A stretch of 64,000 bases of DNA from an uncultured Candidatus Saccharibacteria bacterium (GTDB taxonomy: Bacteria > Patescibacteriota > Minisyncoccia > Phycocordibacterales > UBA9973): NCBI GenBank assembly GCA_964527235.1, contig CAZGNC010000002.1, positions 82,381 through 146,380 of the forward strand. Reading direction: 5' to 3'. Of this stretch, positions 16,572-58,937 are shown in pieces (positions within the stretch are counted from its first letter, which is position 1; each line of letters begins with the position of its first letter). A model generated the notes under the pieces. That model had not been told where the DNA came from, searched no databases, and saw only the letters and a program-made list of their open reading frames with translations. Made by a program: the position numbers and the translations under genes.

Positions 16572-16706
16572 ATGTCGCAAACATACAATCCTAAAAAGAG
16601 GAAAAGAAGCAAAGCTCATGGATTTCTAGTTAGATCTAAGAGTAAAACAGGCCGAAAGGTCCTTTTGAGAAGACAAAGAAAGGGGCGCGCGAAGCTGTCT
16701 GTATAG
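16572..16706 (+). CDS. rpmH: 50S ribosomal protein L34
   Basis: Hand translation gives [44 protein letters not shown] (44 aa). It is below the ORF-track size cutoff. Confidence 0.9.
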
Positions 16707-16733
16707 CCTTTATTTAAGCCTTTTGGCTTTAAA

Positions 16734-17241: not shown

Positions 17242-17290
17242 ATATTTATATTTTCTAGCGTTTTAGAGTGTTTTCATATAGAATGGAATA

Positions 17291-18016: not shown

Positions 18017-18028
18017 CCTAAAACCCTT

Positions 18029-19833: not shown

Positions 19834-19840
19834 AAAATTA

Positions 19841-22194: not shown

Positions 22195-22212
22195 AATAAT
22201 AAAATTATTATA

Positions 22213-24054: not shown

Positions 24055-24061
24055 ATATTTA

Positions 24062-24709: not shown

Positions 24710-24737
24710 TGAAATTTTATTTTTACAAACCTAATAA

Positions 24738-25157: not shown

Positions 25158-25160
25158 ATC

Positions 25161-26309
25161 TTATTCTATCACTTCTCGGTACGGATCGGTACCAGACTTA
25201 GGGTCTTTATTTAGAGCTGGTGCCGGAGTTGCAACTTTTGAAATGTTTTTCATCGCATAGTCAGTTTGAGTTTTAGGGATTTGGAAAGTTCCGGCGAATT
25301 TTTGCGCTTCGATAGACTTAGGAGGAGTTGGCCCACCAGAAGCAAGATGCCATTCTTGTTTGAGCATCTCTTCTCTGTCTATGTTGTTGGCTGGGTTTGG
25401 AGCAGCAGGCTGCTGTGCGACTCTAGGAGGAGGTGTTGGGATTGGAGCATTAGGCATAATAGGAGATGGTCTTGGGATTGGGACCACGTTATGGGCATTT
25501 GGGGCATTCTTTACATCAGGCATAAGCTCTATGCCTGCCTTTTTCAACGTTTGCATGTCGTCTTTTAGGGTGTGCACAGTTGAGGCAGGGTCTGGGATAA
25601 CTGTTTTGGCTGGTGCTGCTGTCGGTGCTGATGCTGGGGTTTTGTTTTCACTACTTGCGTTCATCATGTTTTCTCTGATTTTCTTTATTATCTTTTCATT
25701 TACATCAGTTACTAACTTTGGAATTAGTTCAGTTGGGATTTTAAGCTTGTCTTTTAGCGCTTGTTCGAATTGAGTAGGTTGAATTACTCCAGTTATAACA
25801 TCAACAGTTACTACTTCTAGAATGCCTGTCTGCTCTACGTTTAGCTTGTTGTCTTTAGATATAGTGTAAATTATGTTTTGGTAATCTAGCTTGGAGATAG
25901 CATCTTGGACATTTTTTGCCAAGTTAGCAAAGCGTTCATCTAGTCCTTGTGTTTCGAGTTCTGGTTCTGGATTCTGAGAGTTTGCCTTAAATGTATTATT
26001 TAGCTCTGTTTTTATTGGGTTTATTACTAGGCTATTTATCTCTTCAAGCATGTTGCCGAATGCGTCTTTCGCCAATAGAGATATTTCTTTTTTAAGATTT
26101 GACTCGAATTCTTCTGTGGAAATTATGCCCAGTAATACTAAAGTGGCCTCAGTCCCAAGAGTTTGTATTTGAGCCTCAGTTAGGTTGTATTTAATACTTA
26201 TCCTCTTCAATGTTTCTAACCAGCTCATGCTTGCAAACATTGATTGAACTGTTGGTGGCAACTTTGCGTAAAAAATAGCTATATTTTGTTTTAATTCTTC
26301 AGGATTCAT
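25161..26309 (-). CDS. Hypothetical protein with Pro/Ala-rich C-terminal half
   Basis: 382 aa, no TM, proline-rich low-complexity tail. Co-oriented with the T4SS genes. Confidence 0.55.
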   Translation of the reverse strand: MNPEELKQNIAIFYAKLPPTVQSMFASMSWLETLKRISIKYNLTEAQIQTLGTEATLVLLGIISTEEFESNLKKEISLLAKDAFGNMLEEINSLVINPIKTELNNTFKANSQNPEPELETQGLDERFANLAKNVQDAISKLDYQNIIYTISKDNKLNVEQTGILEVVTVDVITGVIQPTQFEQALKDKLKIPTELIPKLVTDVNEKIIKKIRENMMNASSENKTPASAPTAAPAKTVIPDPASTVHTLKDDMQTLKKAGIELMPDVKNAPNAHNVVPIPRPSPIMPNAPIPTPPPRVAQQPAAPNPANNIDREEMLKQEWHLASGGPTPPKSIEAQKFAGTFQIPKTQTDYAMKNISKVATPAPALNKDPKSGTDPYREVIE

Positions 26310-26325
26310 TGTTTTAAATTATTTT

Positions 26326-28575: not shown

Positions 28576-28589
28576 TTTTAATAACTTTT

Positions 28590-31025
28590 TTAAAACTGTG
28601 TGTCCCCTGCGTGTTTGTAATCATTGTCATTTACTTTAAACAGAAGACCACAATCTATATCTACGCTTACAGGGAATCCGTTTGCAATATCTCCATAATA
28701 CCAATGAGCATTAACCATAGGCAGGTCAGTGAACCCCGGAGTGCCTAAAGTGTTGCCAAAACCATTTCTGAATGTGAATAGAGATTTTCCTTTATTGTTT
28801 GAGAACTCAGGTCTTATTATGTCGCCATGGCTAAATCCATTTACTATTGGTACATCACAGAAAACTTCTCTTTCAGTTCCAGATGAAGTCATGATTGGTC
28901 CTGGAATTAAGTTCGGTTCTCCCCCGAGATCGCGAGGAATCAAGAAGTAATAGCTCTGTCCTTTCAATGAAGAAATATTTGTTGTGCTTTTAGCTCCACC
29001 TGGTGCAGACCACCCAGCAATGGTTCGCTCTTGTGCGCACTGGTTCTCTAGTAGAAGCAGATTCTGCTTTCTCTCTTTCATTAAATCAAGCTGGCTCCTA
29101 AGGTCTTCGATTCCTGCTGAGTTTGCCACAGAAGCAGCAATAGCATCGTATTGTTTTCTTATATTGATTAGATTCTTTTCTTGAGGTGAGCCAACTGCTG
29201 GCTGGGTGGTTATGGGAGCAAGCATGGCTTCTATAGAATTCAACCTTGTTAACACGGTCATCTTCTCTCGCTTTTTGTCAGTTATTTGCTTGTATTGTTG
29301 GTCGTTAGTGTCTAATTCTTTTATAGCATCTATGTACAATATACTGTTAGGCAACCCAAATCCTCCTTTCTGTGTAGGGGTTATCATCTTTAGATTTATC
29401 CAATCTTTTAGTGCACTTACTGCATATCGTATCTCGCGAATTCCATCTTTAGATGCTCTAACCTTAAGAGGACTGTCATTGGTTGTTTCTGTCATAATTT
29501 TCCCATTTATGACTCTATCTTTTTCTTCATCAAGTCTGGTCTCCCATCCTTTTTCTGGTCCTGGTATGCACATATCTAGTCTCTTAGCTACTGGCCAGAT
29601 TCCATCTAGAACTTCTATTAACCCAGGATTTTGGTTGTTGCTGGTGTTGTTAGATATAAGTTGTAGCTCGAGTGCTGTGTTTGCTATAGCTCCTGGTATG
29701 TAGGTTGCAACTCCCGGAGTCGCACAGTAGCTAGGAGGTGTTGCGTTTGCACAAGTGTTCCCAACATCTTCTTGGGTGACTACCCCTGTTGCTGGGTCTG
29801 TTACTATGGTTTTACCACTGACTTCTTTCTTGAAATCATCAAGTACAATTTCTTGGTCTGGCATTCCGCTCCATGGTGTGTCGCTGTCTGAGCCACCTAG
29901 TGTTTCTCCATAGTAATTAAAGCTGTCATCTGCTGGTGGGTTTACGTGGTTGGATAGTGCTGTCAAACCATCACCTATAAACTTATTTAAAAGAGCATCG
30001 AATATGGTAGCTAGGCTGTTGCCCAGAGCTGCATTTAGAGATGCTTGTTCCTCGGGCTTATTCATTGCTCCTATTATTTTAGAAGCTACGACTGATCCTG
30101 GAGTGGTAGTAGCAAGTCCTTCAGGGCAGGCATATTGCATGTCGAAGTTAGCTCTTGCAGCGTCTACTGCAGATTTGTATAAGGATCTGTATGTTGGGTC
30201 ACTTGCTGCACGTGCCTCATCATAAGGTACTGTGGACGGGTCGAAGCTTGGTTTATTGAAAGGGTTAAGTTGACTTTTGGATGGGTCAGATTTGCAGACT
30301 TGAGGCGACAAGAATCCCTGCCCTTGTTGCAGAGCATCATTTACTTTTTGGGTAGCTGTTCTTGTAGTGCCGTCTAAATTTATCGCTAGTTCTTTCGTCA
30401 CTAACATATCGAATCCGATAGCATTGTTTTGTGGGTATTGGGTGTTCACCAAGAAAGTGTCCCATCCTCCATAGTTGAAGTCTACTCGATATCGCTGTAG
30501 TTCATAGGGGTCATTTGTAATTCTACTCATAGAGTACTCCAGGTTGTCTGAAAGCTGTCTCTTGTAGCTTCCTATGACTCCTAGAAGATAATTTTTACCG
30601 AATGGAAATCGTATAGAGTCATAACCTATGATACTAACTAGGTCTTTTATTTCTGATTTAGCTACATCCTGAAAGAAAGATCCTGGATTTTCTAAGAAAA
30701 GAGGTGCTCCGTGAAAGCCTGTATTTATCCAGTTTACGGTACTCTTGGTCATTTCAGCCAAGGCTTTCCTAGCAACAGCTTTTAATGTTTCTCTCACGAT
30801 AGCTTTAGCTATTTCTTTTAGCTGGGCTGCTGTGCCGGTAACATTCGCTGTTGCGCTTAGTGCGCTTGAAATATTCCCTACTACTCTTTGAATTGCCGCT
30901 ACTGGGTCTACCCATTGTGCTTCAGCCTTTTTGGGAACTGTTAGGAAAATAAAAGACGGTGCAAGAATAAGAACAACAAGTATTGATGAAATGAGTTTTT
31001 GAATTTTTTCTTTTTTAAAAGTCAT
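28590..31025 (-). CDS. Large (811 aa) membrane-anchored secreted protein, hypothetical (surface or adhesin-like)
   Basis: N-terminal TM/signal (ILVVLILAPSFIFLTVPKKAEA), then a long extracytoplasmic domain without recognisable motifs. Confidence 0.6.
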   Translation of the reverse strand: MTFKKEKIQKLISSILVVLILAPSFIFLTVPKKAEAQWVDPVAAIQRVVGNISSALSATANVTGTAAQLKEIAKAIVRETLKAVARKALAEMTKSTVNWINTGFHGAPLFLENPGSFFQDVAKSEIKDLVSIIGYDSIRFPFGKNYLLGVIGSYKRQLSDNLEYSMSRITNDPYELQRYRVDFNYGGWDTFLVNTQYPQNNAIGFDMLVTKELAINLDGTTRTATQKVNDALQQGQGFLSPQVCKSDPSKSQLNPFNKPSFDPSTVPYDEARAASDPTYRSLYKSAVDAARANFDMQYACPEGLATTTPGSVVASKIIGAMNKPEEQASLNAALGNSLATIFDALLNKFIGDGLTALSNHVNPPADDSFNYYGETLGGSDSDTPWSGMPDQEIVLDDFKKEVSGKTIVTDPATGVVTQEDVGNTCANATPPSYCATPGVATYIPGAIANTALELQLISNNTSNNQNPGLIEVLDGIWPVAKRLDMCIPGPEKGWETRLDEEKDRVINGKIMTETTNDSPLKVRASKDGIREIRYAVSALKDWINLKMITPTQKGGFGLPNSILYIDAIKELDTNDQQYKQITDKKREKMTVLTRLNSIEAMLAPITTQPAVGSPQEKNLINIRKQYDAIAASVANSAGIEDLRSQLDLMKERKQNLLLLENQCAQERTIAGWSAPGGAKSTTNISSLKGQSYYFLIPRDLGGEPNLIPGPIMTSSGTEREVFCDVPIVNGFSHGDIIRPEFSNNKGKSLFTFRNGFGNTLGTPGFTDLPMVNAHWYYGDIANGFPVSVDIDCGLLFKVNDNDYKHAGDTQF

Positions 31026-31055
31026 TATCTTGTTCTTTATTATATAATTTACTTT

Positions 31056-31928
31056 CTAGTTATTCAATTTTTTTACCAAGAAATCAGCTAATTTATCCAA
31101 TGCAGATTGTAATAAGTCGCTATTTTCTTCGTATTTACTGATTGCCCCCATTGCAACTATGGGGTCTACCTCAAAAAGTTGTATGTCAGATATATTTTCT
31201 ACTACTCTTTGTAAGGCATTTATCATGTCTAGATGTAGCTGAGCTAAATCCTTCGGGACCGTCATGTTCTTGAAGTCATTTATTGATGAGGACTTCTGTT
31301 TTATTATCGGGTCTAATTTTATGAGGGCCTCGGCGTTTACATTTTCACCGTCATTTACGAATTCTTTTAATATATCAAGTACATTTACTGAAACAGGGTA
31401 CTTTTTGTTGATATTATCTATGGCTGTGACATATGTTTGGATGGCTGTAGGGCTGTTGTCTAGGCTAGTTTTGATATCAGATGCCAAGAAAACCTTTCTT
31501 TGCACCGAGTTTTTTATTTGGCTTGCTAGTGATTCTGTTAGTTTATCGGCACTAGCATCATCTACTTCCCCGGCTTGGTTTAGGGCTACTATAGTAGAAA
31601 ATAGCTCTCTAGAGAATTTATCAGTTTCAGTTAGAACCTCTTCTCCTGTAACAGTGTCTTTGGTGTCGGTGGTGCCTTCTTTTTCTAATTTTAGCTTAGC
31701 TATTTCTGCTCCGTCTTCTTCGCCGTCACCATCAGTGTCTTTCATTGTTGGGCTGGTGCCCCATAGTCCCTCTTCCCAATTCATTACTCCATCTAAGTCC
31801 GTATCTGTGCTTACTAGGTCAGATAGTTTCATGTCTCCTGAATATATTCCCGCACTTTCTCCAGAATTATTGTTGAATATTGTTTTACTTTTTATCAAAA
31901 AAAGCACAAGCAAAACAACTACCGTCAA
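31056..31928 (-). CDS. Membrane-anchored secreted protein with Asp-rich Ca-binding-like repeats
   Basis: N-terminal TM; DTDLDGVMNWEE...DTDGDGEEDGAE resembles thrombospondin-type-3 or dockerin-like Ca-binding loops. Confidence 0.55.
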   Translation of the reverse strand: MTVVVLLVLFLIKSKTIFNNNSGESAGIYSGDMKLSDLVSTDTDLDGVMNWEEGLWGTSPTMKDTDGDGEEDGAEIAKLKLEKEGTTDTKDTVTGEEVLTETDKFSRELFSTIVALNQAGEVDDASADKLTESLASQIKNSVQRKVFLASDIKTSLDNSPTAIQTYVTAIDNINKKYPVSVNVLDILKEFVNDGENVNAEALIKLDPIIKQKSSSINDFKNMTVPKDLAQLHLDMINALQRVVENISDIQLFEVDPIVAMGAISKYEENSDLLQSALDKLADFLVKKLNN

Positions 31929-43292: not shown

Positions 43293-45056
43293 CTAATCTC
43301 TCGGATGGGTGTGTTTTTGTTTTCGTGTCGGAATATACAGCATATCGATATATTCTTTTAGCATTCTGGAGGTTGAGAAATTGTTTAATATGAGATTTCT
43401 GGCGTTTTGCATTTTTTTATACCACACAGAGTTTTCTTTTTGAGTTATAAATTGTTGGTATTCAGGTATTATTTCTTTCTCAAGCAGATAGCGCAATTCT
43501 TCGCCGTTCTCAGAGCTGTTGACTACCCAGCCTATTCCCCCCGCTTCTACTTCACTGATCCAGCCGTCGTTGGTCGATAATGTAAGTGCACCGTTTAGGG
43601 CAGCTTTCATGCCACTAGTGCCACAAGCCTCTCTACCTATAACTGGAGTGTTGAGCCACATATCAGCCCCCATGGTTAAGATAGAAGCAACCTCTGTGCT
43701 GTAATTAGGAATGAATACTGCAATCCCCTTTAATTTTTCTTCGATGGCTTTTTTAATCACAGAAACCAAAGGGCTCTCATTTTCTCCAGTAGGTCCCGAA
43801 TAAATAATTCTTATTGGGACGGGAGAATTATTTGTAATTTCTAAGATTTTATCAATGTTATCTATGAAAAGCATGGGTTGCTTATAGTCAACCATACGTC
43901 TTGCCCATACTAGAATTAGGTCATTTTCTCCCCAGGTTTGACCAGTTTGTTTGGTCACAAAATTTAACAGAAGTTTTTTATTCTCAGTGTGTTGTTCTAA
44001 AAGGTTTAAATCTGAGTTGTCTTTAATCTTGTCCCATCTCTTAATAAATATGCCGTTGGTAACATTCTGCATTTTTTCATCGGGCCAGACCTTTTTTGCT
44101 TTTTCTAAGTGAAGTTTACTAACAGTGTTTGATTTGTTTGAGAGTCTAAATGACAGAGTTGTCATCGACAAAAGATTTGAATCATAGTTGATAGCTCCAA
44201 GATCTGCGATGTCTTTACCTTCTAATCCCATTTCTTCAGCATATTGGGCCATGTATTGGGCTACTTTTTCTGACAAGAATTGTTCTTGTCCCGCAGCAAC
44301 AAGGGTGTGGTTAGTGAAAACTATATGCTTTCGTGCGTAAGTGCACGCATCTTCAAAGCTTGCACGCTGGTGTTCCATTTCATGCCTTACTAGCTCTAGT
44401 GCTAGAAATGCCGAGTGCCCTTCATTTAGATGGTACACTGATGCATGTATGCCGAGCTTGGCTAGTAATCTAAATCCACAAATTCCTAGAATTATCTCTT
44501 GTTTTAGTCTGGTGTCACGATTCTCCGCATATAGATATTTTGTTATTTCTATATCCTCTGCTGAGTTCTCTGGTGTATCAGTATCTAGTAGGTAAACTTT
44601 CGCATTTCCTTCTTGCCAAAGCCAAGCCCTCACAGATATCATTCTATTTTCCATAGGCAATGAAACGATTATTTCTTTACCATTAGTGTCTACAACTTTC
44701 TGTAGGTTGTGACGGTGCTCATCAGTAGATAGATTACTCTGAGCTTTTTGGTAGAGTAGGCCAACAGCCACAAGTGGGAAATCTTGCATTGCAGTTTCAC
44801 GAATGTAGTCCCCTGCTAAAATACCAAGCCCGCCGGCGTATGTAGGAAGCGCTGAGTCTAGAGCGTATTCAGCAGAGAAATACGCTACGGGGTTCTTGGA
44901 GAATGCTTTGTATTCTTCGCCATTTTTAAATTCAGAAAACCATCTTTCAGTTTCTAGTGACAGCTTGTCGACACTTTTATCCCCCTCTCTGTTCTGGTTG
45001 CCCGCCACGAATTTCGTAATACTTTGCTTTATATTTTTCAATAGTTGATTCAACAT
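43293..45056 (-). CDS. Alpha-glucan phosphorylase (GT35, short archaeal/thermophile-type)
   Basis: AYFSAEYAL...PTYAGGLGILAGD is the GT35 signature; 587 aa. Its 5' end overlaps the upstream GH57 gene by about 80 nt. Confidence 0.75.
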   Translation of the reverse strand: MLNQLLKNIKQSITKFVAGNQNREGDKSVDKLSLETERWFSEFKNGEEYKAFSKNPVAYFSAEYALDSALPTYAGGLGILAGDYIRETAMQDFPLVAVGLLYQKAQSNLSTDEHRHNLQKVVDTNGKEIIVSLPMENRMISVRAWLWQEGNAKVYLLDTDTPENSAEDIEITKYLYAENRDTRLKQEIILGICGFRLLAKLGIHASVYHLNEGHSAFLALELVRHEMEHQRASFEDACTYARKHIVFTNHTLVAAGQEQFLSEKVAQYMAQYAEEMGLEGKDIADLGAINYDSNLLSMTTLSFRLSNKSNTVSKLHLEKAKKVWPDEKMQNVTNGIFIKRWDKIKDNSDLNLLEQHTENKKLLLNFVTKQTGQTWGENDLILVWARRMVDYKQPMLFIDNIDKILEITNNSPVPIRIIYSGPTGENESPLVSVIKKAIEEKLKGIAVFIPNYSTEVASILTMGADMWLNTPVIGREACGTSGMKAALNGALTLSTNDGWISEVEAGGIGWVVNSSENGEELRYLLEKEIIPEYQQFITQKENSVWYKKMQNARNLILNNFSTSRMLKEYIDMLYIPTRKQKHTHPRD

Positions 45057-46467
45057 CTTTGTGTGGTATTTCTACTCTTAATAAGTCTATCGCATTAATC
45101 GTATCATAAATATCTAATTTGTTTTCTAGTTTAAACATAGCATCACGCCAAAGGATTGCTTTCTCGTATTCGTGTCTTTCCACTGCTTGTTGTTCTAAGC
45201 CCTTCATCATGTCGATAAAAGCATAATAAACTCCCTCCTCGGCTCCACCCTTGCCGACTGTTCTGTCCTTAAATGGTATCCTGAGTATGTCTTTTTGTGA
45301 TTGCATCATCATGCGAATCTTCCCTGTTCTTTGCCAATTAAATGCAGTAGAAATAATCTTTTCATAAAAATCTCTCCCCTCTTCTATTGTTTCTTTTTGA
45401 ACATTAGGTACATGCCTTAGGGTGTCTAGCAAGTTGTATGCGCCGTACTCAATCATTTCCAAGCTCCACCATGGTTTTGCTGAGGCCCACCAGAAATGAT
45501 CTGAAGCCAAAGACATGTCCATTTTTTCGCGCACTAGTTCGTATCGTGGGTGCGATTTGTCCATTTTGTAAACTTCTTGTAACACGAGTTCTGTGAGTTC
45601 CCACTGCCATTTATGGATTATATTTTCTGGGTCATTCCAAGATAGAAACTGAATTCCATGCTCTATATCTTCCTTGCTTGACGCCCATGTTGCCTTGGCT
45701 GGAGCTATTTCTTTTTCTTCTTTGTAAAATTCTTTTACCTCAGAAATTTTAATTAATTCAAATTCTTTTGTTTGAAAAACTTCAAAAAGCATTTTCTCAA
45801 GTCCTGGTCTGTGGTGACCGAAAGTTTCAGCGTCCATCGCTGTGACTATGTAGTTACCAGTTGCGAGATCGTCCTTCATTGCGTCGTGGAGAGTGTCGCT
45901 TGATCTCACGACAGCACTCATTATTAAATTACTTAGTCTTCTACTGCGAAAGAATACCTGCATATCTGTGTCTTGTAATTTATATATTTGACTATAGTCT
46001 ACTTGCCCCACTTGGCCTCCACAGGATATCTCATCTAATATTATCCATTTAAAACCAAGCTCGTTTAGGATTCTGCCAATTCTCTCATCGTAAGCCATTT
46101 CTGGTGCGAAAAATCCATTAGGTGAATACTCTCCCAGAAAACGTTTTAAGGTTTCTGTGTTGAGTGTTATTTGTCTTTTAATTTCGTCGTCAGAAAGTAA
46201 TGGTAACAGCGCATGATATTTTGCTGAGCCTGTAATTTCTATCCTGCCTTCGTCTACTAAGGTTTTGATATCTGCGATTATGTCGTTGTGTTCGTATTTA
46301 TGAAGAAGCTCGAACAGGGCGCCGTTTATATTTACGGATAGTTTAACTTCCTTATTTTTTTTGATGCCATCGATTATTGGTCGATAGCTTTGGGCTACGA
46401 TAGCCTCAAGTATATCCGGTTGTTGATTAACAGGTTGATAAAAATGTAAGAAGTTTGCCCATTTCAT
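44977..46467 (-). CDS. Glycoside hydrolase family 57 protein (alpha-glucan branching-enzyme-like)
   Basis: N-terminal ANFLHFYQP motif (GH57 HxHQP-type) and a TAMDAETFGHH catalytic region; 496 aa. Confidence 0.75.
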   Translation of the reverse strand: MKWANFLHFYQPVNQQPDILEAIVAQSYRPIIDGIKKNKEVKLSVNINGALFELLHKYEHNDIIADIKTLVDEGRIEITGSAKYHALLPLLSDDEIKRQITLNTETLKRFLGEYSPNGFFAPEMAYDERIGRILNELGFKWIILDEISCGGQVGQVDYSQIYKLQDTDMQVFFRSRRLSNLIMSAVVRSSDTLHDAMKDDLATGNYIVTAMDAETFGHHRPGLEKMLFEVFQTKEFELIKISEVKEFYKEEKEIAPAKATWASSKEDIEHGIQFLSWNDPENIIHKWQWELTELVLQEVYKMDKSHPRYELVREKMDMSLASDHFWWASAKPWWSLEMIEYGAYNLLDTLRHVPNVQKETIEEGRDFYEKIISTAFNWQRTGKIRMMMQSQKDILRIPFKDRTVGKGGAEEGVYYAFIDMMKGLEQQAVERHEYEKAILWRDAMFKLENKLDIYDTINAIDLLRVEIPHKDVESTIEKYKAKYYEIRGGQPEQRGG

Positions 46468-49102: not shown

Positions 49103-49543
49103 TCACAGAATAATGTTTTTGACGACTTCTACCCTAGCTTTCTTGTTTTTTGTGTCTAGGAATACAACCAGTAAATCAACCTGCCAGTCTTGTTCATCTG
49201 GTGTATCTTTGTGCAGGAGGTATGTTTGGACCGTTCTTGATAGCCTTTTAAGCTTCCAGGGATGCATATTGTCCTCTGGTCGGTAGTCGTTTGTTTCATG
49301 TGTAACATCAGCAAGGTCTGACCTTGAGACACTTTTTACCTCTACAAAGTGAAGTTTGTTGTCCTTTTGAGCTATAATGTCTATTTCACCCCACTTCTTA
49401 GTGTAATTTCTTTCTAAAACCTCAAAACCTTGTTTCACGAGAAACCTTGTGGCGATGTTTTCTCCTGCTTCTCCTAGCTTTTGTGTGTCGGAAGTGAATT
49501 TTTTAGGCATATTGATTGATGTTTCATAAGAAACATGTTTCAC
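49103..49543 (-). CDS. YraN/UPF0102 family endonuclease-like protein
   Basis: GEAGENIATRFLVKQGFEVLERNY...GEIDIIAQKD..HFVEVKS matches the UPF0102 pattern. Start is GTG at 49543 or ATG at 49510. The palindromic repeats described in the findings lie in this 5' region. Confidence 0.7.
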   Translation of the reverse strand: MKHVSYETSINMPKKFTSDTQKLGEAGENIATRFLVKQGFEVLERNYTKKWGEIDIIAQKDNKLHFVEVKSVSRSDLADVTHETNDYRPEDNMHPWKLKRLSRTVQTYLLHKDTPDEQDWQVDLLVVFLDTKNKKARVEVVKNIIL

Positions 49544-49550
49544 GTGAAAC
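49432..49550. repeat. Three copies of a 14-bp palindrome GTTTC-N4-GAAAC
   Basis: Copies seen at 49432-49445 (gtttcacgagaaac), 49521-49534 (gtttcataagaaac) and 49537-49550 (gtttcacgtgaaac), in or near the yraN start. Confidence 0.6.
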
Positions 49551-49751
49551 GTTATGTGGTTTTTTGATGTCTTTTACTAAAATAACCTTATTTTACAACG
49601 TATTTTGAATAAAAAGGTGCTAAAAAGACACAAATTCAAACTGTCCTTTATTCACATACTAACAGACTTATCCACAGTTTCTGTTAATATGTTGATATTA
49701 TAAGTGTATATCTAAGGGACATAGACTAAAATTTGAACTAGGACGAATTTG

Positions 49752-49823
49752 TGCACCCGGAGGGATTCGAACCCCCAATGACAGTTCCGAAGACTGTAGT
49801 GATATCCATTTCACCACGGGTGC
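49752..49823 (-). tRNA. tRNA-Arg(TCG)
   Basis: Folded by hand: acceptor GCACCCG/CGGGTGC, D-arm GTGA/TCAC, anticodon stem ACAGT/ACTGT with loop CTTCGGA, T-arm GGGGG-TTCGAAT-CCCTC, 4-nt variable loop. Confidence 0.7.
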
Positions 49824-49943
49824 AATTGGAAACATTATACCCCATACTTGTGAATTTTCATAATATCCTTATTTTAATAGCTTATTTAAATAAATTGCAA
49901 TATGGTAAAATTAATATATAATTAAATGGTTAAAAGTAATAAA

Positions 49944-50014
49944 GCGGTCATGGTTTAGTGGTAGAACACGTCCTTGCCAAGGATGAGACGGGAGTTCGAT
50001 TCTCCCTGGCCGCA
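49944..50014 (+). tRNA. tRNA-Gly(GCC)
   Basis: Folded by hand: acceptor GCGGTCA/TGGCCGC, anticodon stem CGTCC/GGATG with loop TTGCCAA, T-arm GGGAG-TTCGATT-CTCCC, 4-nt variable loop. Confidence 0.85.
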
Positions 50015-50023
50015 CAGAATAGA

Positions 50024-51577
50024 TTGAACTCAACAAAGGAAAACTTAATAAGCAAAATTCCTAAAGAAGTTTCACATGTAACACAAACTCTCGAAAAGGG
50101 TGGTTTTGAGGCGTATTTAGTAGGGGGGTGCGTAAGAGATCTTTTGATGGGTAGGGAACCTAAGGACTGGGATATAACTACAAACGCTAAACCCGAGCAA
50201 ATTGTTGGTTTATTTGAAAAGACTGTTTATGAGAACAATTTTGGTACTGTAGGGGTATTTATTCCATACCAAGATGTGGATCAAGACGTTTCTCGTGAAA
50301 CTAATGAGAACAGTGTTTCACGAGAAACACCAGAATATTTTAGTATAGAGGTAACTCCTTATAGATTAGAGGCAAAATATAGTGATTTTAGGCATCCAGA
50401 CCAGGTTGAGTTCAGCAATAAGCTGGAGGATGATCTTAAAAGACGTGATTTTACCATGAATGCCTTGGCCATGGATGCTAAAGGACAGATAACAGACATG
50501 TTCGGAGGCCTAAAGGACATAGAAACTAAAACAATAAGAACTGTTGGAGCGCCAGGGGATAGGTTTAGTGAAGATGCTTTGCGAATGCTAAGAGCGGTGC
50601 GATTTTCAGTGCAACTCGATTTCTCTATTTCGCATGATGTTACAGAAAGTATTTTTAAAAATGCTGACCTGGTGAAAAAAATTTCAGCAGAAAGAATTCG
50701 CGATGAATTTTCAAAAATAATTTTATCACCAAGTCCAGCTGCTGGGGTTGTGATGTTGCAAAAATTCGGATTGTTGAAAGATGTTATTCCAGAACTTGAA
50801 GAGGGAATTGGTTGCGAGCAATTGGGTGAACATATATATGATGTTTGGGAGCATTTACTCCACGCACTTCAGCATGCGGGGGATAAGAATTGGCCTTTAG
50901 AAATAAGGCTTTCGGCGCTTTTTCATGATATTGGTAAACCGAGAACTCGTAGATTTGATGCCACAAAAGCAGGCGGAAAAGGCAAATATACTTTCTATGG
51001 ACACGAAGTCGTTGGTGCCAGAATGGCAAAAAAAATAATGGAGAGACTAAAGTTTTCTAAAAAAGAGATTGATTTAGTAGAAAAATTAATCCGTAACCAT
51101 ATGTTTTTCTCTGATACTGAAGTTATCACACTTTCGCCAGTTAGAAGAATTATTGCAAAGGTTGGCAAGGAGCACATTTGGGATTTAATGAATGTTCGCG
51201 AGTGTGATCGAGTGGGGATGAGAAAAAAGGAGGCCCCATATCGACTTAGGAAGTATTTTGCAATGATTGAAGAAGCTTTAAGAGATCCCATATCGGTCAG
51301 CGCTTTAAAAATTGATGGAGAGTACATGATTAAAGAGCTTAAAATTAAGCCCGGGCCCAGAATGGGCTGGATTTTACATGCGTTACTGGAAGAAGTTCTA
51401 GATGATCCTAGTAAAAACACCGTCGAACATCTTTCAGAGCTAGTTGCGGGGTTGGATAGGCTACCGGATGGAGCCTTGCGCGCACTAGGAGAGCGGGGCA
51501 AAGAAAAAAAAGAAGAGATAGAAGAGGAAGAGGTGGAGAAATTGCATTCAAAACATGGAGTGCAGAAAAAAAAGTAA
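50024..51577 (+). CDS. cca: CCA-adding enzyme / tRNA nucleotidyltransferase with HD domain, carrying an in-frame palindromic insertion
   Basis: GGCVRDLLMGREPKDWDITTN head-domain motif, RRDFTMNA, and an HD-domain LFHDIGKP. The track ORF start at 49958 overlaps tRNA-Gly; the likely start is TTG at 50024. It contains the VSRETNENSVSRET insertion described in the findings. Confidence 0.8.
   Translation: MNSTKENLISKIPKEVSHVTQTLEKGGFEAYLVGGCVRDLLMGREPKDWDITTNAKPEQIVGLFEKTVYENNFGTVGVFIPYQDVDQDVSRETNENSVSRETPEYFSIEVTPYRLEAKYSDFRHPDQVEFSNKLEDDLKRRDFTMNALAMDAKGQITDMFGGLKDIETKTIRTVGAPGDRFSEDALRMLRAVRFSVQLDFSISHDVTESIFKNADLVKKISAERIRDEFSKIILSPSPAAGVVMLQKFGLLKDVIPELEEGIGCEQLGEHIYDVWEHLLHALQHAGDKNWPLEIRLSALFHDIGKPRTRRFDATKAGGKGKYTFYGHEVVGARMAKKIMERLKFSKKEIDLVEKLIRNHMFFSDTEVITLSPVRRIIAKVGKEHIWDLMNVRECDRVGMRKKEAPYRLRKYFAMIEEALRDPISVSALKIDGEYMIKELKIKPGPRMGWILHALLEEVLDDPSKNTVEHLSELVAGLDRLPDGALRALGERGKEKKEEIEEEEVEKLHSKHGVQKKK
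50288..50328. repeat. Pair of mutually reverse-complementary 14-bp palindromes (gtttctcgtgaaac ... gtttcacgagaaac, 13-bp spacer) inside the cca coding sequence
   Basis: They form a perfect 14-bp inverted repeat. Both copies are in-frame and each encodes VSRET. Confidence 0.65.
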
Positions 51578-51668: not shown

Positions 51669-51938
51669 ATGACAGAGGATGAACAATACAGTGCGCTCAT
51701 AAGTGAAATTATCAAAAAGCAATCAATTATTTTGGGTCCTGAAATTGCTGTGCTAAAAGCACGCAGTGTTCCTGGAATAATGGTAGACAATGATGGCAAA
51801 GTTACTGGAGTAGGAGACAATCCAAAAGAAACCTTGCAGAAATTGGTCGACCAATATGTTGAGCTTTCTGGGCAAATTGTTAAGAATGCTCTCGGTTCGA
51901 TATTTGCCAAATATCCAGATTTAAATATCAATAAATAA
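51669..51938 (+). CDS. Small hypothetical protein (89 aa)
   Basis: Co-oriented with the downstream membrane protein and two-component genes. The minus-strand ORF overlapping this region has less plausible composition. Confidence 0.4.
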   Translation: MTEDEQYSALISEIIKKQSIILGPEIAVLKARSVPGIMVDNDGKVTGVGDNPKETLQKLVDQYVELSGQIVKNALGSIFAKYPDLNINK

Positions 51939-51941
51939 TTT

Positions 51942-52673
51942 ATGACCACAGAAACATTAATAAGTTTCGCTCGGTTAATCTCATCCTTGGGTTTTCTCTC
52001 TGCTTTCTTTGTTACATTTTTAGCTGTGCGTAGATTTGGTAAATCAGCACTCGGCTCTATCTTTTCTTATATCTTGATCGGGACTGGAATATTTTTTGCT
52101 ATAACAGTTTTTCAACAACTGGGAAATGATTTTTTTAGAATTTCACCTGAATCAATGAGTCTTTGGTGGCACTTGATGTTTTTTATGGCGTTGGCATCTT
52201 TCTACTATGGACTAAAGCTTTTAGTTGGGCTTGGCGCCGCCGAAACAGAGAGCAATAAGGGGCTTAAAATTGGAGTAGAAAAAATTTGGGCTATTGTTGC
52301 TCTGGCTATATTAGTAGGAGTATTTTTCTCGGCGAATTTTTTTGAGTATGGAGTCCTTTCCTATACGAATTCTTCTTTGGGTCAAATGGGGTTTCATCAC
52401 TTTGTTGCGGTGTTACTCTCGGGCATGGTGGGTTCTTATTTACTCTTAGCAAAAAAGGACCTAGGTCAGATAGGGAAAGCTGTCGCCAGTCCGATGATTG
52501 CTGCTATTTGGATATTGAGTTTGCAACATTTCTGGGAATTGTTGGTTGAGAGTTGGCACATAGTTCCAATATCGGGCCACAATAGCGAGGGAGTAGAGCA
52601 AATATTTTTTATTGCAGTAGCGGTAAGTCTCTTGTATGCAGCTTTCAGACTGAAATCTTTCGCTAAGGCTTAA
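51942..52673 (+). CDS. Polytopic membrane protein (about 7 TM), hypothetical; possible sensory partner of the downstream kinase
   Basis: Multiple hydrophobic helices, no motif. Confidence 0.55.
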   Translation: MTTETLISFARLISSLGFLSAFFVTFLAVRRFGKSALGSIFSYILIGTGIFFAITVFQQLGNDFFRISPESMSLWWHLMFFMALASFYYGLKLLVGLGAAETESNKGLKIGVEKIWAIVALAILVGVFFSANFFEYGVLSYTNSSLGQMGFHHFVAVLLSGMVGSYLLLAKKDLGQIGKAVASPMIAAIWILSLQHFWELLVESWHIVPISGHNSEGVEQIFFIAVAVSLLYAAFRLKSFAKA

Positions 52674-52701
52674 AAATTAAGTTTCGGGGTTATTTTAGAA
52701 A

Positions 52702-54462
52702 ATGATACTAACTATTTTTTCAATAATTCTTGCTATTACTGGAGCATCCACTGCAGTGTATTTTGTTGTTAAAGACCGCCGAGCTAAAATTGCCTTGGCA
52801 AAAAGAGAGCAAGAGGTAAGTCGCCGGATGTACGAATTGGCTATATTGAAAGAACTAGGGGACCGCATCGGGTACTCACTAGATGTGCAGCAAATTGTAG
52901 ACGTGATTACTAGTTCTTTGCATCAGTTTATTGACTATAGTGCTGTGTCTTATATGTTGCTTGAGCCCGAGGAGATAATATTTAAAATTCACCTAGAGAG
53001 ATCAGTTCATCGTAGATTCGTAACTGATATACGTGATCGAATGGTAGGGTCTTTAAGCGCTCTTCTTGATAGAGAATTTGATAAAAAATCTATAAAAGAA
53101 ATTTTATCTGGTGCTATTATCATAGAAGAACTCGAAGAACCAGTTAAATCATTTTTCAACATTCCTCTCGTGATAGATGAGAAGGTTGTAGGTATCTTGA
53201 CTGTCGCTGACACAAAGGCAGGCTTGTACAAAGAAGAGGAGATGACTATTTTGTACAAAATTATCCAGCAAGCCTCAAATGCAGTTACAAGGTTGCAGGG
53301 TGTAGTTAAAACTGAACAAGCCAAAGTAAATGCAATGGTTGAAAGTATGGAAGACGGGGTGGTGATGACAGATGCAGACTTTCGCATTTTAGTTATTAAT
53401 CCTGCAGCTAAAAGAGTTATAGGGCTGGAACACAGGAATGATATTACTATATTTGATTTTATCGATAACCTTGGAGGGAAAGTCGATATTCGTGGAAGAT
53501 TAGAAGAAAGCGTAAAACTAAAAAAGTCATTTACCTCAGAGAAGTTTTTAGTAAGGGAGAAATTTTTTCAAGCTTTTGTGTTTCCTGTTAAAACAAATGC
53601 ATCAATGCCTGGGCAGGATGTTCTGGGTGGGGTTGTAATATTTCACGATGTCACTAAGGAGATGGAGCTGGCTCGAGTGAGGGAAGACTTTACTTCGATG
53701 CTAGTGCATGAACTTCGAACACCACTAGATGTGATAAAGAAATTCAGTGAGATACTAAAGAAGCCAGGTAAAAAAGTAGATGCAGCTTCTTACAAAGAAT
53801 ATATAGGAATGATTCACCAGAATGCATCTGGTATGCTTAATCTTGTTAATGATATTCTGGATATTGCCAAGCTTCAGGCGGGGAAGTTCGAAATAAGTGT
53901 TGTGCCTGGAGACATGGGGGAGATCATAGAAAACAGAATTAAATTTTTTGAAGTTTCTGCTTTAGATAAAAAAATCAAACTCAAGAGTATAGTGAGCCCA
54001 AACATGTCTAAGAACGCTTTGTTTGACCCACTTAGGATAAAAGAAGTTCTTAATAATTTAATTTCAAATGCATTAAAATTTACCAAAGAAAAAGAGACTA
54101 TCTCAATTATAGCTTTTGAGCACGAAGCAGACGCTGATCCTGATACTGAACTTAAGAAACTTAAGGTAGCACTACCTGCACCACTACCCAAAGATGCCTT
54201 TGTTAAATTCCCAGATTCTATTGTGGTATTGGTATCTCACCCTGACGAGGGCATACCGCCAGAGCAAATTGGGGAACTATTCAACAAGTTTAAACAGCTC
54301 AATAATAAAGATTTCGTAACTAACGTGAAAGGCACAGGACTTGGTCTGGCTATAGTTAAGGGCATTGTAGAAGAGCATAAAGGCCACGTCGGGGTAGTTT
54401 CTACTGTAGGGGTTGGCACTGCATTTTACTTCGTGTTACCATTATCTGGAGGAAAAGCTTAG
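52702..54462 (+). CDS. Sensor histidine kinase (TM, GAF/PAS-like, HisKA, HATPase_c)
   Basis: H-box HELRTPLD, N-box NLISNALKFT, and G-boxes ...GTGLGLAIVKGIVEEHKG. Confidence 0.85.
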   Translation: MILTIFSIILAITGASTAVYFVVKDRRAKIALAKREQEVSRRMYELAILKELGDRIGYSLDVQQIVDVITSSLHQFIDYSAVSYMLLEPEEIIFKIHLERSVHRRFVTDIRDRMVGSLSALLDREFDKKSIKEILSGAIIIEELEEPVKSFFNIPLVIDEKVVGILTVADTKAGLYKEEEMTILYKIIQQASNAVTRLQGVVKTEQAKVNAMVESMEDGVVMTDADFRILVINPAAKRVIGLEHRNDITIFDFIDNLGGKVDIRGRLEESVKLKKSFTSEKFLVREKFFQAFVFPVKTNASMPGQDVLGGVVIFHDVTKEMELARVREDFTSMLVHELRTPLDVIKKFSEILKKPGKKVDAASYKEYIGMIHQNASGMLNLVNDILDIAKLQAGKFEISVVPGDMGEIIENRIKFFEVSALDKKIKLKSIVSPNMSKNALFDPLRIKEVLNNLISNALKFTKEKETISIIAFEHEADADPDTELKKLKVALPAPLPKDAFVKFPDSIVVLVSHPDEGIPPEQIGELFNKFKQLNNKDFVTNVKGTGLGLAIVKGIVEEHKGHVGVVSTVGVGTAFYFVLPLSGGKA

Positions 54463-54511
54463 CAATAACAAACTATTAGACACCCTCGGGTCATAGTGAT
54501 AAAATACAAAT

Positions 54512-54886
54512 ATGAAAACAATACTTATAATTGATGATGAGGAATATTTCGCAAAGACTATTAGAGAAGTTCTGGATCCTAAGAAATATAAAATAATTAC
54601 TGCCGCAGACGGGGAAGAGGGGTTAAACACTGCTGCCAGAACTCAGCCAGATGCAATATTGCTTGATATCAATATGCCTAAAATGAATGGCTTAGATTTT
54701 TTACGCGCTCTAAAGGGTAATAAAATTCCAATAATCATAACCTCAAATTTGTCTTCTATGCAGACTATCAGTGAGGGAGTGGAGCTGGGAGTACGTGGTT
54801 ACATCGTTAAATCTAACGAATCTACAGAAGCTATAGCTGAAGCAATTGAAGGTCTATTCGTAGTAGCTCCTCCTAAGAAGCTCTAG
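54512..54886 (+). CDS. Single-domain response regulator (CheY-like receiver only)
   Basis: IIDDEE...D(54)-type LLDINMPKMNGLDFL and ...KPIIITS; 124 aa with no output domain. Confidence 0.85.
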   Translation: MKTILIIDDEEYFAKTIREVLDPKKYKIITAADGEEGLNTAARTQPDAILLDINMPKMNGLDFLRALKGNKIPIIITSNLSSMQTISEGVELGVRGYIVKSNESTEAIAEAIEGLFVVAPPKKL

Positions 54887-54981
54887 AATCTTTTTTAATG
54901 TTTCGCTCTTTTGAGCTCTTCAGTAAGGATTAACATCCTTAGACATCAGTCCGTCACGTGGACTAAGCGGATAGTTAGATA

Positions 54982-55638
54982 TCAGCTTGATGTTCTCTTT
55001 CTGATTTTGTATGCGTCGACAATGAATCCCAGCGAGATAATCTGCTGGAGAGTGAACCATACGTATTGCTCTCTCCACATGAGCGTTGCAGTCACTACAT
55101 TCATCAGCATGTATGCGAAGTACTGTCGCTCGTCGTCCTTCGCTTGTAGGTACGTCCCAAGCAGAAACCCACCAGAAGCAGCAATTTCCAACCACTGGTT
55201 GATGGTGATGAACCCTCCAAAGTAGTGGAAACTGTAGCCAAGTCCGAACCCGATTAGTATGTATACAATCGGATCAAGCTGGCCGAGTGTCTGATCAATC
55301 TTCTCCTTGGTGGTACCGCGCATCGCGAGCAGGAGCCCGAGCACCATGACCGGAAATGCACCTGCCTCGAGGCCGGCGAATATCCAGTTATCCTTGATAA
55401 GGAGCATTGCGACCACTGCGGGCAATCCCGTGATGTACACCAGCCATGACCTAGTACGCCACGTTTGTGCGACCACTAGATCAATTCGCTTGGTCCGCTC
55501 ATACCGCGAACAGAAGATCTTGTGAAAGAGGTAGAACGCACCTCCCCAAGTTTGTAGAAAGACTTCCATCTGGTCCTCCGTTGTAGGGTTTCGACGAACT
55601 TTCGGATACATAATAGCACTTTTAAGGATTATTGTCAA
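54982..55638 (-). CDS. Polytopic membrane protein, possibly PnuC-like nucleoside transporter; GC content clearly above the local average
   Basis: About 7 TM, 218 aa. GC is roughly 50% by inspection against about 37% for neighbours. The family assignment is weak. Confidence 0.45.
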   Translation of the reverse strand: MTIILKSAIMYPKVRRNPTTEDQMEVFLQTWGGAFYLFHKIFCSRYERTKRIDLVVAQTWRTRSWLVYITGLPAVVAMLLIKDNWIFAGLEAGAFPVMVLGLLLAMRGTTKEKIDQTLGQLDPIVYILIGFGLGYSFHYFGGFITINQWLEIAASGGFLLGTYLQAKDDERQYFAYMLMNVVTATLMWREQYVWFTLQQIISLGFIVDAYKIRKRTSS

Positions 55639-55753
55639 TCTAATTCGTCAATAAATTGTTAAATATATTCAATATTTACAATATCTATTTTAAAAACAGC
55701 GTATTTTTGTCGAAAAATATTGACACAATTTGTTTTCCTGCTAAACTTTAAGT

Positions 55754-56539
55754 ATGGAAGATAGAAATAATGAGTTAAAAAATTCACTCATAGGTGTGGG
55801 GTTAAAGGAGAAGGAGGCGGATGTTTACTTGGCAATTTTATCCCTAGGTCAAGGCACCGCGTCAAAAATAGCACGCAAGGCTAGAATAGTACGTACGACC
55901 GCTTATGATATTTTAAGCTCGCTTTTTGATAAGGGGCTTGTGACTTTGACCGGTAAAGAACCTAAGCAAGAGTATGTGGCTGAATCTCCTGATAATCTTA
56001 AAATTTATATAGAAAGCGAACTGAAGAAAATCCAAACTGATTTAGATGGAGCTAAAAATATTTTAATTCCACAATTAAAATCAATCCATAATTTAAACAA
56101 TCGTCCCAAAGTTTTATTTTATGAAGGGAAAGAAGGGTTGGAGCGTGTCTATGAAGACACTCTTACTTCTAGTGAAGAAATCCTTGCTTATGCTAGTGTC
56201 GAAGATACTGAATTAACCTTGCCCAATTATTTTCCTAATTACTATAAAAGACGTGCCTCAAAAGGAATTTCAATTCGAGCAATATTCCCCGAATCACCAG
56301 AAGCACGCAGTCGAGCCAGTTTAGATAAAGAAGAAAAAAGAACATCTCTTATTGTTCCTGATAAGTATGGATTTCACCCTGAAATAAATATTTACGATAA
56401 TAAAATAATGATAGCTTCCTGGAGGGAGAAGCTTGGTGTGATTATCGAAAGTAGTGAAATCGCTGACGCAATGAAAAAAGTTTTCGAGCTTTCTTGGGCT
56501 GAGGCGAAGCGACTAGATATAGGTAGTTCTAAAACTTAA
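55754..56539 (+). CDS. TrmB-family transcriptional regulator
   Basis: N-terminal winged HTH typical of TrmB (LKEKEADVYLAILSLGQGTASKIARKARIVRTTAYDILSSLFDKGLV), followed by a C-terminal effector domain. Confidence 0.7.
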   Translation: MEDRNNELKNSLIGVGLKEKEADVYLAILSLGQGTASKIARKARIVRTTAYDILSSLFDKGLVTLTGKEPKQEYVAESPDNLKIYIESELKKIQTDLDGAKNILIPQLKSIHNLNNRPKVLFYEGKEGLERVYEDTLTSSEEILAYASVEDTELTLPNYFPNYYKRRASKGISIRAIFPESPEARSRASLDKEEKRTSLIVPDKYGFHPEINIYDNKIMIASWREKLGVIIESSEIADAMKKVFELSWAEAKRLDIGSSKT

Positions 56540-57143
56540 AAATTTTCTCGAAGATCCTTGTGCTCCAAGGGGAGAGGTTGAATATCACAGCTAGGGTGAA
56601 AAGCGCTAGCGATATTTCTGTGCCTACAAATGAAAGCGGTATAGCGATGAGGGCGATGAATACTGGCACTAGCGTGCGTACAGTAGAGCCATGTATTTCT
56701 CGTGTGCTTATTTCAGGGTTCTTGATGTGTTCAGAATATAAAACGTAATTGCGCATAGAGAAAAGAGTAAGCCCTATAAGAACAATATGGAATCCAAATA
56801 TCGCCACAGCTAATTCATTATGGCTGAATTTTCCTAGAAGTGAGGCTGAGAAGGGAATAAGGGTGATGAATAAGAAGAATAAGGCATTGATATTTGAAAG
56901 TTTCGCGTCTACGTTTTTGGCATAAATCGAAATAAAGAAGTGGTGCGCTCTCCAGTAGGTGAAGAGTAGCGCAAACGAGAGAACATAACTCGCGAAGTGT
57001 GGGATCAGGCTTCTAAGTGCCATCCATAAATCCAAATTACTTAAAATGGATGCATCGGTTGGTACCTTTATTTCAAAAACTAAAATGGTCATAACGATGG
57101 CAAAGATGCCATCGGAGAGTTGATCTAATCTTGTGTGTGACAT
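56529..57143 (-). CDS. DUF1211/TMEM175-like membrane protein (putative K+ channel family)
   Basis: N-terminal RLDQLSDGIFAIVMTILVFEI matches the RxxxFSDGxxAIxxTLLV signature; about 6 TM. Confidence 0.7.
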   Translation of the reverse strand: MSHTRLDQLSDGIFAIVMTILVFEIKVPTDASILSNLDLWMALRSLIPHFASYVLSFALLFTYWRAHHFFISIYAKNVDAKLSNINALFFLFITLIPFSASLLGKFSHNELAVAIFGFHIVLIGLTLFSMRNYVLYSEHIKNPEISTREIHGSTVRTLVPVFIALIAIPLSFVGTEISLALFTLAVIFNLSPWSTRIFEKIFKF

Positions 57144-57959: not shown

Positions 57960-58937
57960 TTATTTTTTACTATGAAACTTCTTATGTATTTCTTTTAAAT
58001 GTTTATCTGTGACGTGGGTGTATATTTGCGTAGTGATAATGCTCGAATGGCCTAGTAGTGATTGCACAGATCGTATGTCTGCGCCGTTTGAGAGTAGGTC
58101 AGTGGCGAAGCAGTGTCGTATAACGTGCGGAGTTACTTTCTTGGCGATGCCCGCCTTAGTTGCGTAGAACTTTACTATTCGTTCTATCGAACGTCGGTCG
58201 AGGTTGCCGTATTCTTTACCTTTGTGTTTTTTCTTGTCATCACTTCCACTTTTTTTGTTTTTAGTTTTACTTAGTTCTGCGGGCTCGATACTTACGAAGA
58301 GCCCTTCTTCCATATCTTTGCGAGCATCTAGATATCTTTTCAGTGCAGATCTGGCTCGGTCAGAGATGAACACTACTCTTATTTTTCCACCCTTACCACG
58401 TACTGAGAGTTCTTCGGAGTTTGAGTTTAGGTTGCGCGATAGGGAACATAGCTCTCCCACGCGGAGCCCAGTAGAAAATAGTACTTCAAGTATGGCTTTG
58501 TCTCGCAATTCTTTTATGTCACTTCCTGATGGTGCAGCCAGAAGTCGCTCTAGTTCTTCGGCTGTTATAAGGTCTAGGTGTCTTTCATTTAGCTTTGCTA
58601 GTTCTATCTTGTCAGAGTTCATCGAGGTTATGTCTCTCTTGGCTAGATACTTAAGGAACATCCTCAGTGCAGTCATATAGTAGTTCTGAGTTCGTTTTGA
58701 AATTGTTTCGCGAATGTCTTTGTTGCGACCGGTGGGTTGGTTGTTGAGCCAAAGACGAAACTCTCTCACAGAGTCGAGGTTGATCTTGTCGGGACTCTTT
58801 ATCCCTTTTTTCTTTTCTATAAAATCCAAGTACTTACCGAGATAGAAGTCGTAGTTCTCGATAGTGCGTAACGCCGCCCCGCGCTCTATCTCTAAGTATT
58901 CTAAGAATTGCGTTTTAAGTTCTTTGAGTGTTGCCAC
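57960..58937 (-). CDS. Tyrosine site-specific recombinase, XerC/XerD-like, with a Lys-rich insertion
   Basis: Catalytic R...HxxR...Y region (HVIRHCFATDLL...GHSSIITTQIYTHV) and an N-terminal core-binding domain. There is an extra KNKKSGSDDKKKHKGKEYGN insert. Confidence 0.85.
   Translation of the reverse strand: MATLKELKTQFLEYLEIERGAALRTIENYDFYLGKYLDFIEKKKGIKSPDKINLDSVREFRLWLNNQPTGRNKDIRETISKRTQNYYMTALRMFLKYLAKRDITSMNSDKIELAKLNERHLDLITAEELERLLAAPSGSDIKELRDKAILEVLFSTGLRVGELCSLSRNLNSNSEELSVRGKGGKIRVVFISDRARSALKRYLDARKDMEEGLFVSIEPAELSKTKNKKSGSDDKKKHKGKEYGNLDRRSIERIVKFYATKAGIAKKVTPHVIRHCFATDLLSNGADIRSVQSLLGHSSIITTQIYTHVTDKHLKEIHKKFHSKK

Follow-up and report, generated by a model that had tools for sequence, protein, structure and literature searches.

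ParABS systems mark chromosomes for segregation through parS, a palindrome with a 16-bp consensus that occurs in several copies of graded quality, clustered close to the origin and rare elsewhere; examples are the Spo0J sites of Bacillus subtilis and the arrays of Mycobacterium, Corynebacterium and Caulobacter. parS sites inside coding sequence are known, and the first B. subtilis parS lies within spo0J, where it reads V-P-R-E-T. Noc, a ParB paralogue, reads Noc-binding sites (NBS, ATTTCCCGGGAAAT) that have other bases than parS at the specificity positions and occur throughout the chromosome apart from the terminus region. A different class of palindromic DNA, the Rickettsia palindromic elements (RPEs), consists of mobile repeats of ~100-150 bp that are dispersed in many genes. 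The published chromosomal parS consensus is TGTTNCACGTGAAACA, with GTTTCACGTGAAAC as the M. smegmatis form, and parS acts as a centromere-like ParB loading site, of which the bacteria studied have 2-22 per chromosome, located in the ori domain (PMC7022226). Myxococcus xanthus has 22 parS sites and Streptomyces coelicolor has 21 (PMC7022226). Here, a 64-kb stretch of the 216,689-bp contig CAZGNC010000002.1 from an uncultured Candidatus Saccharibacteria bacterium (the window, at its full length) was analyzed for a family of palindromes at the yraN-tRNA-cca locus. Going by the names of homologues, the genome belongs to the Nomurabacteria-like Paceibacteria, within the Patescibacteria. We conclude, with a probability of about 0.8, that the palindromes are chromosomal parS sites, seven of graded quality in a 1-kb array that runs from yraN through the yraN-tRNA spacer into the 5' third of cca. 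The element is of a canonical kind and its setting is new, conserved and unusual.

The pattern GTTTCNNNNGAAAC (GTTTC-N4-GAAAC) occurs six times in the window versus 0.12 expected, and none of 100 dinucleotide-preserving shuffles reached six copies. A sequence-only reading of the window had located five palindromes inside 900 bp, and all five stand where it placed them; the excess over random expectation is accompanied in relatives by a bias to the cca locus. The pattern match at 42303 lacks the central CACGTG, has 5 mismatches to the 16-mer consensus and was set aside as a chance match. A search with the 16-mer TGTTTCACGTGAAACA at up to 3 mismatches returned seven matches in 64 kb versus 0.39 expected, all within 49292-50329. 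No other match at this threshold was found in the window outside that interval, and GTTTCAC half-sites beyond the cluster kilobase occur at chance frequency. Compared with TGTTNCACGTGAAACA, all seven sites have 3 mismatches or fewer and two have a single mismatch. At the bases that set specificity, the sites here are of parS type (G at position 2, CAC at positions 6-8).

Two of the seven sites lie in yraN, a tandem pair lies 5' of yraN and three lie in cca, which places five of the seven in coding sequence. The best site is TGTTTCACGTGAAACG (49536-49551; 1 mismatch), which is non-coding and forms a tandem pair with TGTTTCATAAGAAACA (49520-49535; 3 mismatches). Inside yraN, TGTTTCATGTGTAACA (49292-49307; 2 mismatches) encodes VTHET on the minus strand in a variable YraN loop, and TGTTTCACGAGAAACC (49431-49446; 2 mismatches) is read in a different frame as R-F-L-V-K-Q. 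In cca, CGTTTCTCGTGAAACT (50287-50302; 3 mismatches) and TGTTTCACGAGAAACA (50314-50329; 1 mismatch) encode the first and second VSRET words of a loop in the protein. The degenerate site AGTTTCACATGTAACA (50068-50083) is near the cca N terminus and encodes E-V-S-H-V-T; at the matching position in several relatives, parS is perfect or has one mismatch. The copies at 49292-49307 and 50068-50083 are further family members beyond the five palindromes first reported.

Conservation was measured in 80 related cca loci of at most 21 kb each (±10 kb; 1.16 Mb in total) that span the Nomura-, Kaiser-, Taylor-, Yonath- and Zambryskibacteria (Paceibacteria, Patescibacteria/Candidate Phyla Radiation (CPR)). 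A parS-like site in these loci was defined as a 16-mer with no more than 2 mismatches, with positions 5 and 12 free. The scan found 241 sites, 237 of them in the zone from -3 to +2 kb relative to the cca start, and beyond these limits the density is close to zero. Twelve composition-matched control palindromes built from shuffled half-sites gave 0-19 sites in total over the 80 loci. The position matrix of the 237 sites recovers the parS consensus, with variation chiefly at positions 5, 12 and 9 and at the ends, and many relatives match the consensus exactly. An unbiased 8-mer enrichment around cca returned CACGTGAA, CGTGAAAC and TCACGTGA as the top words. Each of the 16 close relatives covered in full has two sites or more (median 5), and at least one site is present in 25 of 30 more distant relatives. 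The richest locus, L024, has 15 sites in ~5 kb, many of them perfect. No parS-like sites were found in the dnaA loci of the relatives.

The window array resembles ParABS parS in its consensus, its several graded copies, its origin-proximal clustering and its rarity elsewhere. It differs from the characterized systems in being tied to yraN-tRNA-cca and not to parAB, with no par genes nearby, in a position that is kept across a Patescibacteria class and in the stacking of sites in variable, disordered loops of two housekeeping proteins. The clusters of M. xanthus and S. coelicolor also pack many close copies into a short origin-proximal stretch, as the relatives do with up to 15 in ~5 kb, but those clusters surround the parAB operon, whereas the window array has seven sites in 1 kb inside other genes. 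NBS share with the window sites a 14-16-bp palindrome for a ParB-family reader; unlike NBS, the window sites are parS-type at the specificity bases and clustered.

Several observations weigh against the parS assignment. Neither ParB nor ParA was detected in the window by Pfam and NCBIfam searches of all open reading frames (ORFs) of at least 110 aa. Neither gene was found in the 7.5 kb past the right edge of the window, which were reached via PNPase on a 13-kb Logan contig, in the 80 cca loci, or beside dnaA on long contigs of three relatives. Among ORFs of at least 70 aa, the window and the 80 cca loci contained no ParB by the regular expression G[EHD]RRxRA or by phmmer with an approximate B. 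subtilis Spo0J sequence as query. Three of the seven window sites, those with 3 mismatches, may bind weakly or not at all, and the rarity of the motif outside the cluster was gauged over ~64 kb of this genome and ±10 kb in relatives. The weak matches in the ParB searches were HTH_17, trigger factor, TrmB and integrase, and were rejected as ParB. Literature searches returned no statement on ParB in Patescibacteria. Because the canonical site is strictly conserved, a canonical ParB is presumably encoded elsewhere in this genome and would bind the window sites. The probability of the parS assignment is not set above 0.8 chiefly because no ParB was located; the assignment draws directly on the consensus identity, clustering and class-wide conservation of the sites, on constraint at the DNA level, on location in protein loops and on origin proximity.

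The cca gene (50024-51577, plus strand; start approximate) encodes a CCA-adding enzyme with PolyA_pol head, RNA-binding and HD domains. The database protein P0001 is a 539-aa ORF with a GTG start at 49958, which overlaps tRNA-Gly(gcc) (49944-50015, plus strand), and the true start is therefore downstream, near 50024. The conserved first ~22 residues of the long ORF reflect the conserved tRNA gene and not the protein. The two VSRET words occupy an inserted loop, DVDQDVSRETNENSVSRETP (50273-50332, plus strand; residues 106-125 of the ORF from 49958), at the tip of a head-domain beta-hairpin. As the sequence-only reading had described, the palindromes at 50288-50301 and 50315-50328 are perfect reverse complements of each other with 13 nt between them, and both are in frame, translated as VSRET...VSRET. 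Its view that they sit in an in-frame insertion also holds: ~23 Cca residues are unmatched in the solved Firmicute CCA-adding enzymes 6ibp and 1miv. More distant Paceibacteria orthologues have a loop of 15-16 aa, ~17 residues shorter, which has the form ..NEDTEDETLK.. and contains no such word. In an AlphaFold2 model with a mean predicted local distance difference test (pLDDT) score of 78.9, residues 106-125 score below 50 between confident strands at 98-103 and 127-134. The model predicts a disordered beta-hairpin tip, and this, together with the length variation among orthologues, makes the loop look dispensable.

Loop variation was analyzed in 120 Cca orthologues of 70-80% identity, with the loop defined as the segment between FGTV and (I/V)EVTPYR. 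Its length ranges from 16 to 129 aa, and one to four V-x-[RHQ]-E-T words per loop were found in 108 of the 120 proteins; 53 have a single word and 12 have none. The closer orthologues with the shortest loops (L002, L006 and L027) contain a single word, and their loop length is unchanged. These loops suggest point mutation of a loop that already ended in the half-site ...GAT GAA ACN, and not insertion of an element, as the source of the first site. Later sites in the loop would have arisen by local duplication.

These loop data bear on the first proposal of the sequence-only reading, that the palindromes are selfish elements of RPE type that insert in frame, with the cca hairpin as one such insertion. 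The resemblance is that palindromic DNA encodes in-frame extra segments in surface-exposed parts of essential proteins; the cca copies lie within an in-frame insertion in a surface loop, and both loop length and copy number vary between species. The proposal failed on other grounds. The common unit is only 14-17 bp with differing flanks, and no RPE-type unit of ~100 bp with a conserved flank was found. The copies are not dispersed but form one 1-kb array in the window and occupy one positionally conserved locus in the 80 relatives. The L002, L006 and L027 loops have a word without a change in length, and the 16-bp sequence is identical to the universal parS consensus. We regard RPE-like insertion as very improbable.

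The level at which the VSRET words are constrained was analyzed through their codons. Words matching V-x-[RHQ]-E-T were selected by peptide only, and the codons were examined afterwards. Valine was encoded by GTT in 24 of 25 words versus 31% elsewhere in these genes (p = 1e-11), and glutamate by GAA in 25 of 25 versus a background of 66%. Arginine was CGN in 13 of 13 words and never AGR, which accounts for 41% of arginine codons elsewhere. In 126 of 170 words, residue x was S, P, T or A, as expected for an NCA codon at the one parS base that is degenerate. All three cca frames contain the 16-mer, which gives 79 V-x-R-E-T, 10 F/L-H-V-K and 3 F-T-x-N peptides. Words of the V-x-R-E-T type are also present in the variable loop of the unrelated protein YraN, where the 16-mer is on the opposite strand, and a further site occupies another frame of the conserved RFLVKQG motif of YraN. 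The best site, at 49536, is kept at the same position in non-coding DNA of relatives. The fixed codons, the three frames, the YraN words and the non-coding conservation therefore identify the V-x-R-E-T peptide as a by-product of the DNA element.

The same results were weighed against a functional peptide repeat in Cca, in which V-S-R-E-T would contact tRNA or a partner and the DNA palindrome would be incidental. The presence of the word in 108 of 120 orthologues is what such a repeat would predict. The fixed synonymous positions, the substitutions at x (S, P, T, A and I), which are sensible only at the DNA level, the predicted disorder and highly variable length of the loop, and the recurrence of the 16-mer in YraN and in intergenic DNA leave this explanation hardly credible.

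A third explanation treats the cca palindromes as an mRNA hairpin that regulates cca translation or stability. Folding of the cca RNA segment, a check raised by the sequence-only reading, does predict a 14-bp stem of -22.1 kcal/mol (z = -4.1), and no shuffled sequence folds as well. The long stem is not conserved, because only one word is present in 53 of 120 orthologues and none in 12, and it is an automatic by-product, because any two near-identical palindromes pair. The motif is also kept outside coding sequence and on the strand antisense to yraN. Rfam matched only the three tRNAs, and no compensatory changes were seen that keep the pairing while breaking the parS match. A regulatory hairpin is accordingly given very little weight.

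The yraN gene (UPF0102; 49103-49510, minus strand) contains two of the parS-like sites and is syntenic upstream of cca in 59-60 of the 80 relatives. Conservation of the predicted N terminus MPKKFTS in relatives makes the ATG at 49510 its most likely start, and the tandem pair at 49520-49551 would therefore lie 10-41 bp upstream of the start codon. The sequence-only reading was right that the copies at 49521-49550 are in tandem, but they are upstream of the yraN start and not at it. In L024 (3124-3804 and 3805-4312), yraN is 226 aa, swollen by a loop full of perfect parS sites; this length is uncertain because an assembly gap (N run at ~3129-3139) falls in the ORF.

The position of the tandem pair just upstream of yraN, and a palindrome of 5+5 bp or longer that fits a dimeric helix-turn-helix protein, favor an operator for a non-ParB transcription factor that co-regulates yraN, the tRNAs and cca. 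The sequence-only reading had offered a shared operator as its alternative. Its idea of a protein-binding site points the right way, but the operator at the tRNA, cca and yraN promoters is not supported: the promoter-like sites at 49834-49922, between the two tRNA genes, overlap no palindrome, and five of the seven sites are inside coding sequence. Relatives hold up to 15 sites per locus over 5 kb, and many match the parS consensus exactly. No DNA-binding gene is universally syntenic with the array; a TrmB-like gene is present in 15 of 80 loci. An operator of this kind is unlikely.

By analogy with characterized systems, the best sites, those at 49536 and 50314 with 1 mismatch each, would be where CTP-bound ParB closes into a clamp. 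Sliding from there over the adjoining kilobases, ParB would assemble a partition complex that marks the origin region, segregates it and possibly loads SMC. Since the array is kept at the yraN-cca locus, the DNA is under selection within genes as well. Disordered surface loops of Cca and YraN house the sites, in the one reading frame that gives the harmless, hydrophilic V-x-R-E-T peptide, and site gain or loss would lengthen or shorten the Cca and YraN loops. Because the sites are stacked in these loops, site copy number alters protein length.

The classical origin-region genes are at 13775-18508, with dnaN and dnaA on the minus strand and rpmH, rnpA, yidD, yidC and jag on the plus strand, ~34 kb from the array. 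This places the array near the origin, where parS is expected. The DNA next to it contains additional candidate replication signals. The AT-rich spacer at 49552-49641 has TGTCTTTTA at 49568 together with an inverted copy, and the lowest GC content in the region, 27.5%, is at 49500-49699. Adjacent to the spacer on the plus strand is an invariant module, TGTCCTTTATTCACA-N12-TTATCCACA (49642-49676; also written TGTCCTTTATNCACA-N12-TTATCCACAG), which consists of an unexplained 9-mer, a 1-mismatch DnaA box at 49648 and a perfect DnaA box at 49668. In eight species, the yraN/tRNA-Arg spacer has the order parS, TGTCTTTTA, AT-rich tract, inverted TAAAAGACA, invariant TGTCCTTTAT.CACA...TTATCCACAG, inverted TAAAGGACA and tRNA-Arg. 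In the window, tRNA-Arg(tcg) (49751-49823, minus strand) and the divergent tRNA-Gly are both part of the conserved locus.

The DnaA-box words and the 9-mer were found by the k-mer scan that recovered the parS words. Perfect TTATCCACA DnaA boxes in relatives have a density of 0.63/kb in the kilobase upstream of cca and 0.36/kb just past the cca end versus ~0.02/kb elsewhere, a ~30-fold enrichment in the DNA flanking cca. The 9-mer TGTCCTTTA has a density of 0.5-1.2/kb near cca versus ~0.01 elsewhere in relatives, and the window contains three exact copies only, at 49642, 50479 and 50511. The latter two are antisense copies inside cca (50479-50487 and 50511-50519, minus strand) that fall in two reading frames, at A-K-G-Q and L-K-D-I. 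As TGTC[CT]TTTA, this second motif is present in 77 of 80 related loci between -3 and +2.3 kb of the cca start. It is non-palindromic and forms inverted pairs in the spacer (49568-49721 in the window) besides the antisense copies in cca (50479-50519); no known binding protein was identified for it. L024 has at least nine copies of a variant 9-mer, TGTCGTTTAT (also given as TGTCGTTTA).

These features raise the tentative possibility that the yraN-tRNA-cca locus is oriC. The cumulative GC skew of the window has its minimum at the locus, and the coding strand flips at 49.6 kb: from dnaA to the locus, 29.2 kb are coded on the minus strand versus 2.3 kb on the plus strand, and to the right of the locus 8.9 kb on the plus strand versus 3.0 kb on the minus strand. 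A skew switch from negative on the left to positive on the right was seen in 15 of 28 relatives, with a mean difference of +0.08 (p = 5e-7). Against an origin at this position, nine of the 28 loci have no skew switch, the dnaA-dnaN spacer (14873-15088) has three 1-mismatch DnaA boxes, and in one complete Kaiserbacteria chromosome (CP066682.1) cca is ~145 kb from position 1. Complete metagenome-assembled genomes are often rotated so that position 1 is the skew origin (PMC7111523), and dnaA has been taken as an origin proxy (PMC12102498). A broader proposal, which we consider possible but on balance doubtful, is that yraN-tRNA-cca is a combined origin and centromere of Nomurabacteria-like Paceibacteria, ~34 kb from dnaA. 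It would contain parS, DnaA boxes and an iteron-like 9-mer read by an undescribed factor, partly overprinted on coding sequence, and upkeep of the centromere would directly cause loop expansion in two proteins.

Paceibacteria and other CPR bacteria are uncultured, and literature searches found nothing published on their chromosome replication or segregation. The locus is a concrete, conserved candidate centromere and possibly an origin, and could be used for biochemical tests, for anchoring metagenomic replication-rate estimates and for building replicating or segregating vectors. As parS, the array would be a clean natural case of a selected DNA-binding site reshaping protein sequence, in which the number of centromere-motif copies determines how long a disordered loop is, both in an essential enzyme of tRNA maturation and in the neighboring YraN. 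It also carries a warning for annotation, because protein repeats such as 'VSRET' or 'FHVKH' would be parS signatures and not protein motifs. Interest would be greater if the adjacent module proves to be an origin with a new binding factor.

The neighboring genes provide several additional observations. A type IV secretion system (T4SS)-like cluster at 18514-31928 (PrgI, TraC-like, VirB4/TraG ATPase and pilin/NlpC-M15 hydrolase) adjoins jag-yidC-rnpA-dnaA, and the arrangement with dnaA is equal in relatives, including L082 and L083. T4SS-like synteny beside dnaA has already been described for Paceibacteria (PMC12102498). Assignment of the cluster to a conjugative element was considered and rejected, since the cluster represents conserved chromosomal synteny. 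Between cca and exoIII, the ~5.5 kb at 51669-57143 encode an 89-aa ORF, a 243-aa membrane protein, a GAF/PAS histidine kinase, a receiver-only response regulator, a 218-aa ORF, a TrmB-like regulator and a TMEM175-like channel. This block looks like an insertion into a conserved yraN-cca-exoIII-xerCD-NYN-PNPase core, because exoIII is directly 3' of cca in most relatives. On the strand opposite to cca and ~3 kb downstream of it is a conserved gene for a XerC/D-like tyrosine recombinase (57960-58937); 56 of 80 loci have one at ~+3.2 kb. On the minus strand, the glucan phosphorylase-like and GH57 ORFs (43293-45056 and 44977-46467) overlap by 80 bp, which may reflect a mis-set downstream start or a frameshift.

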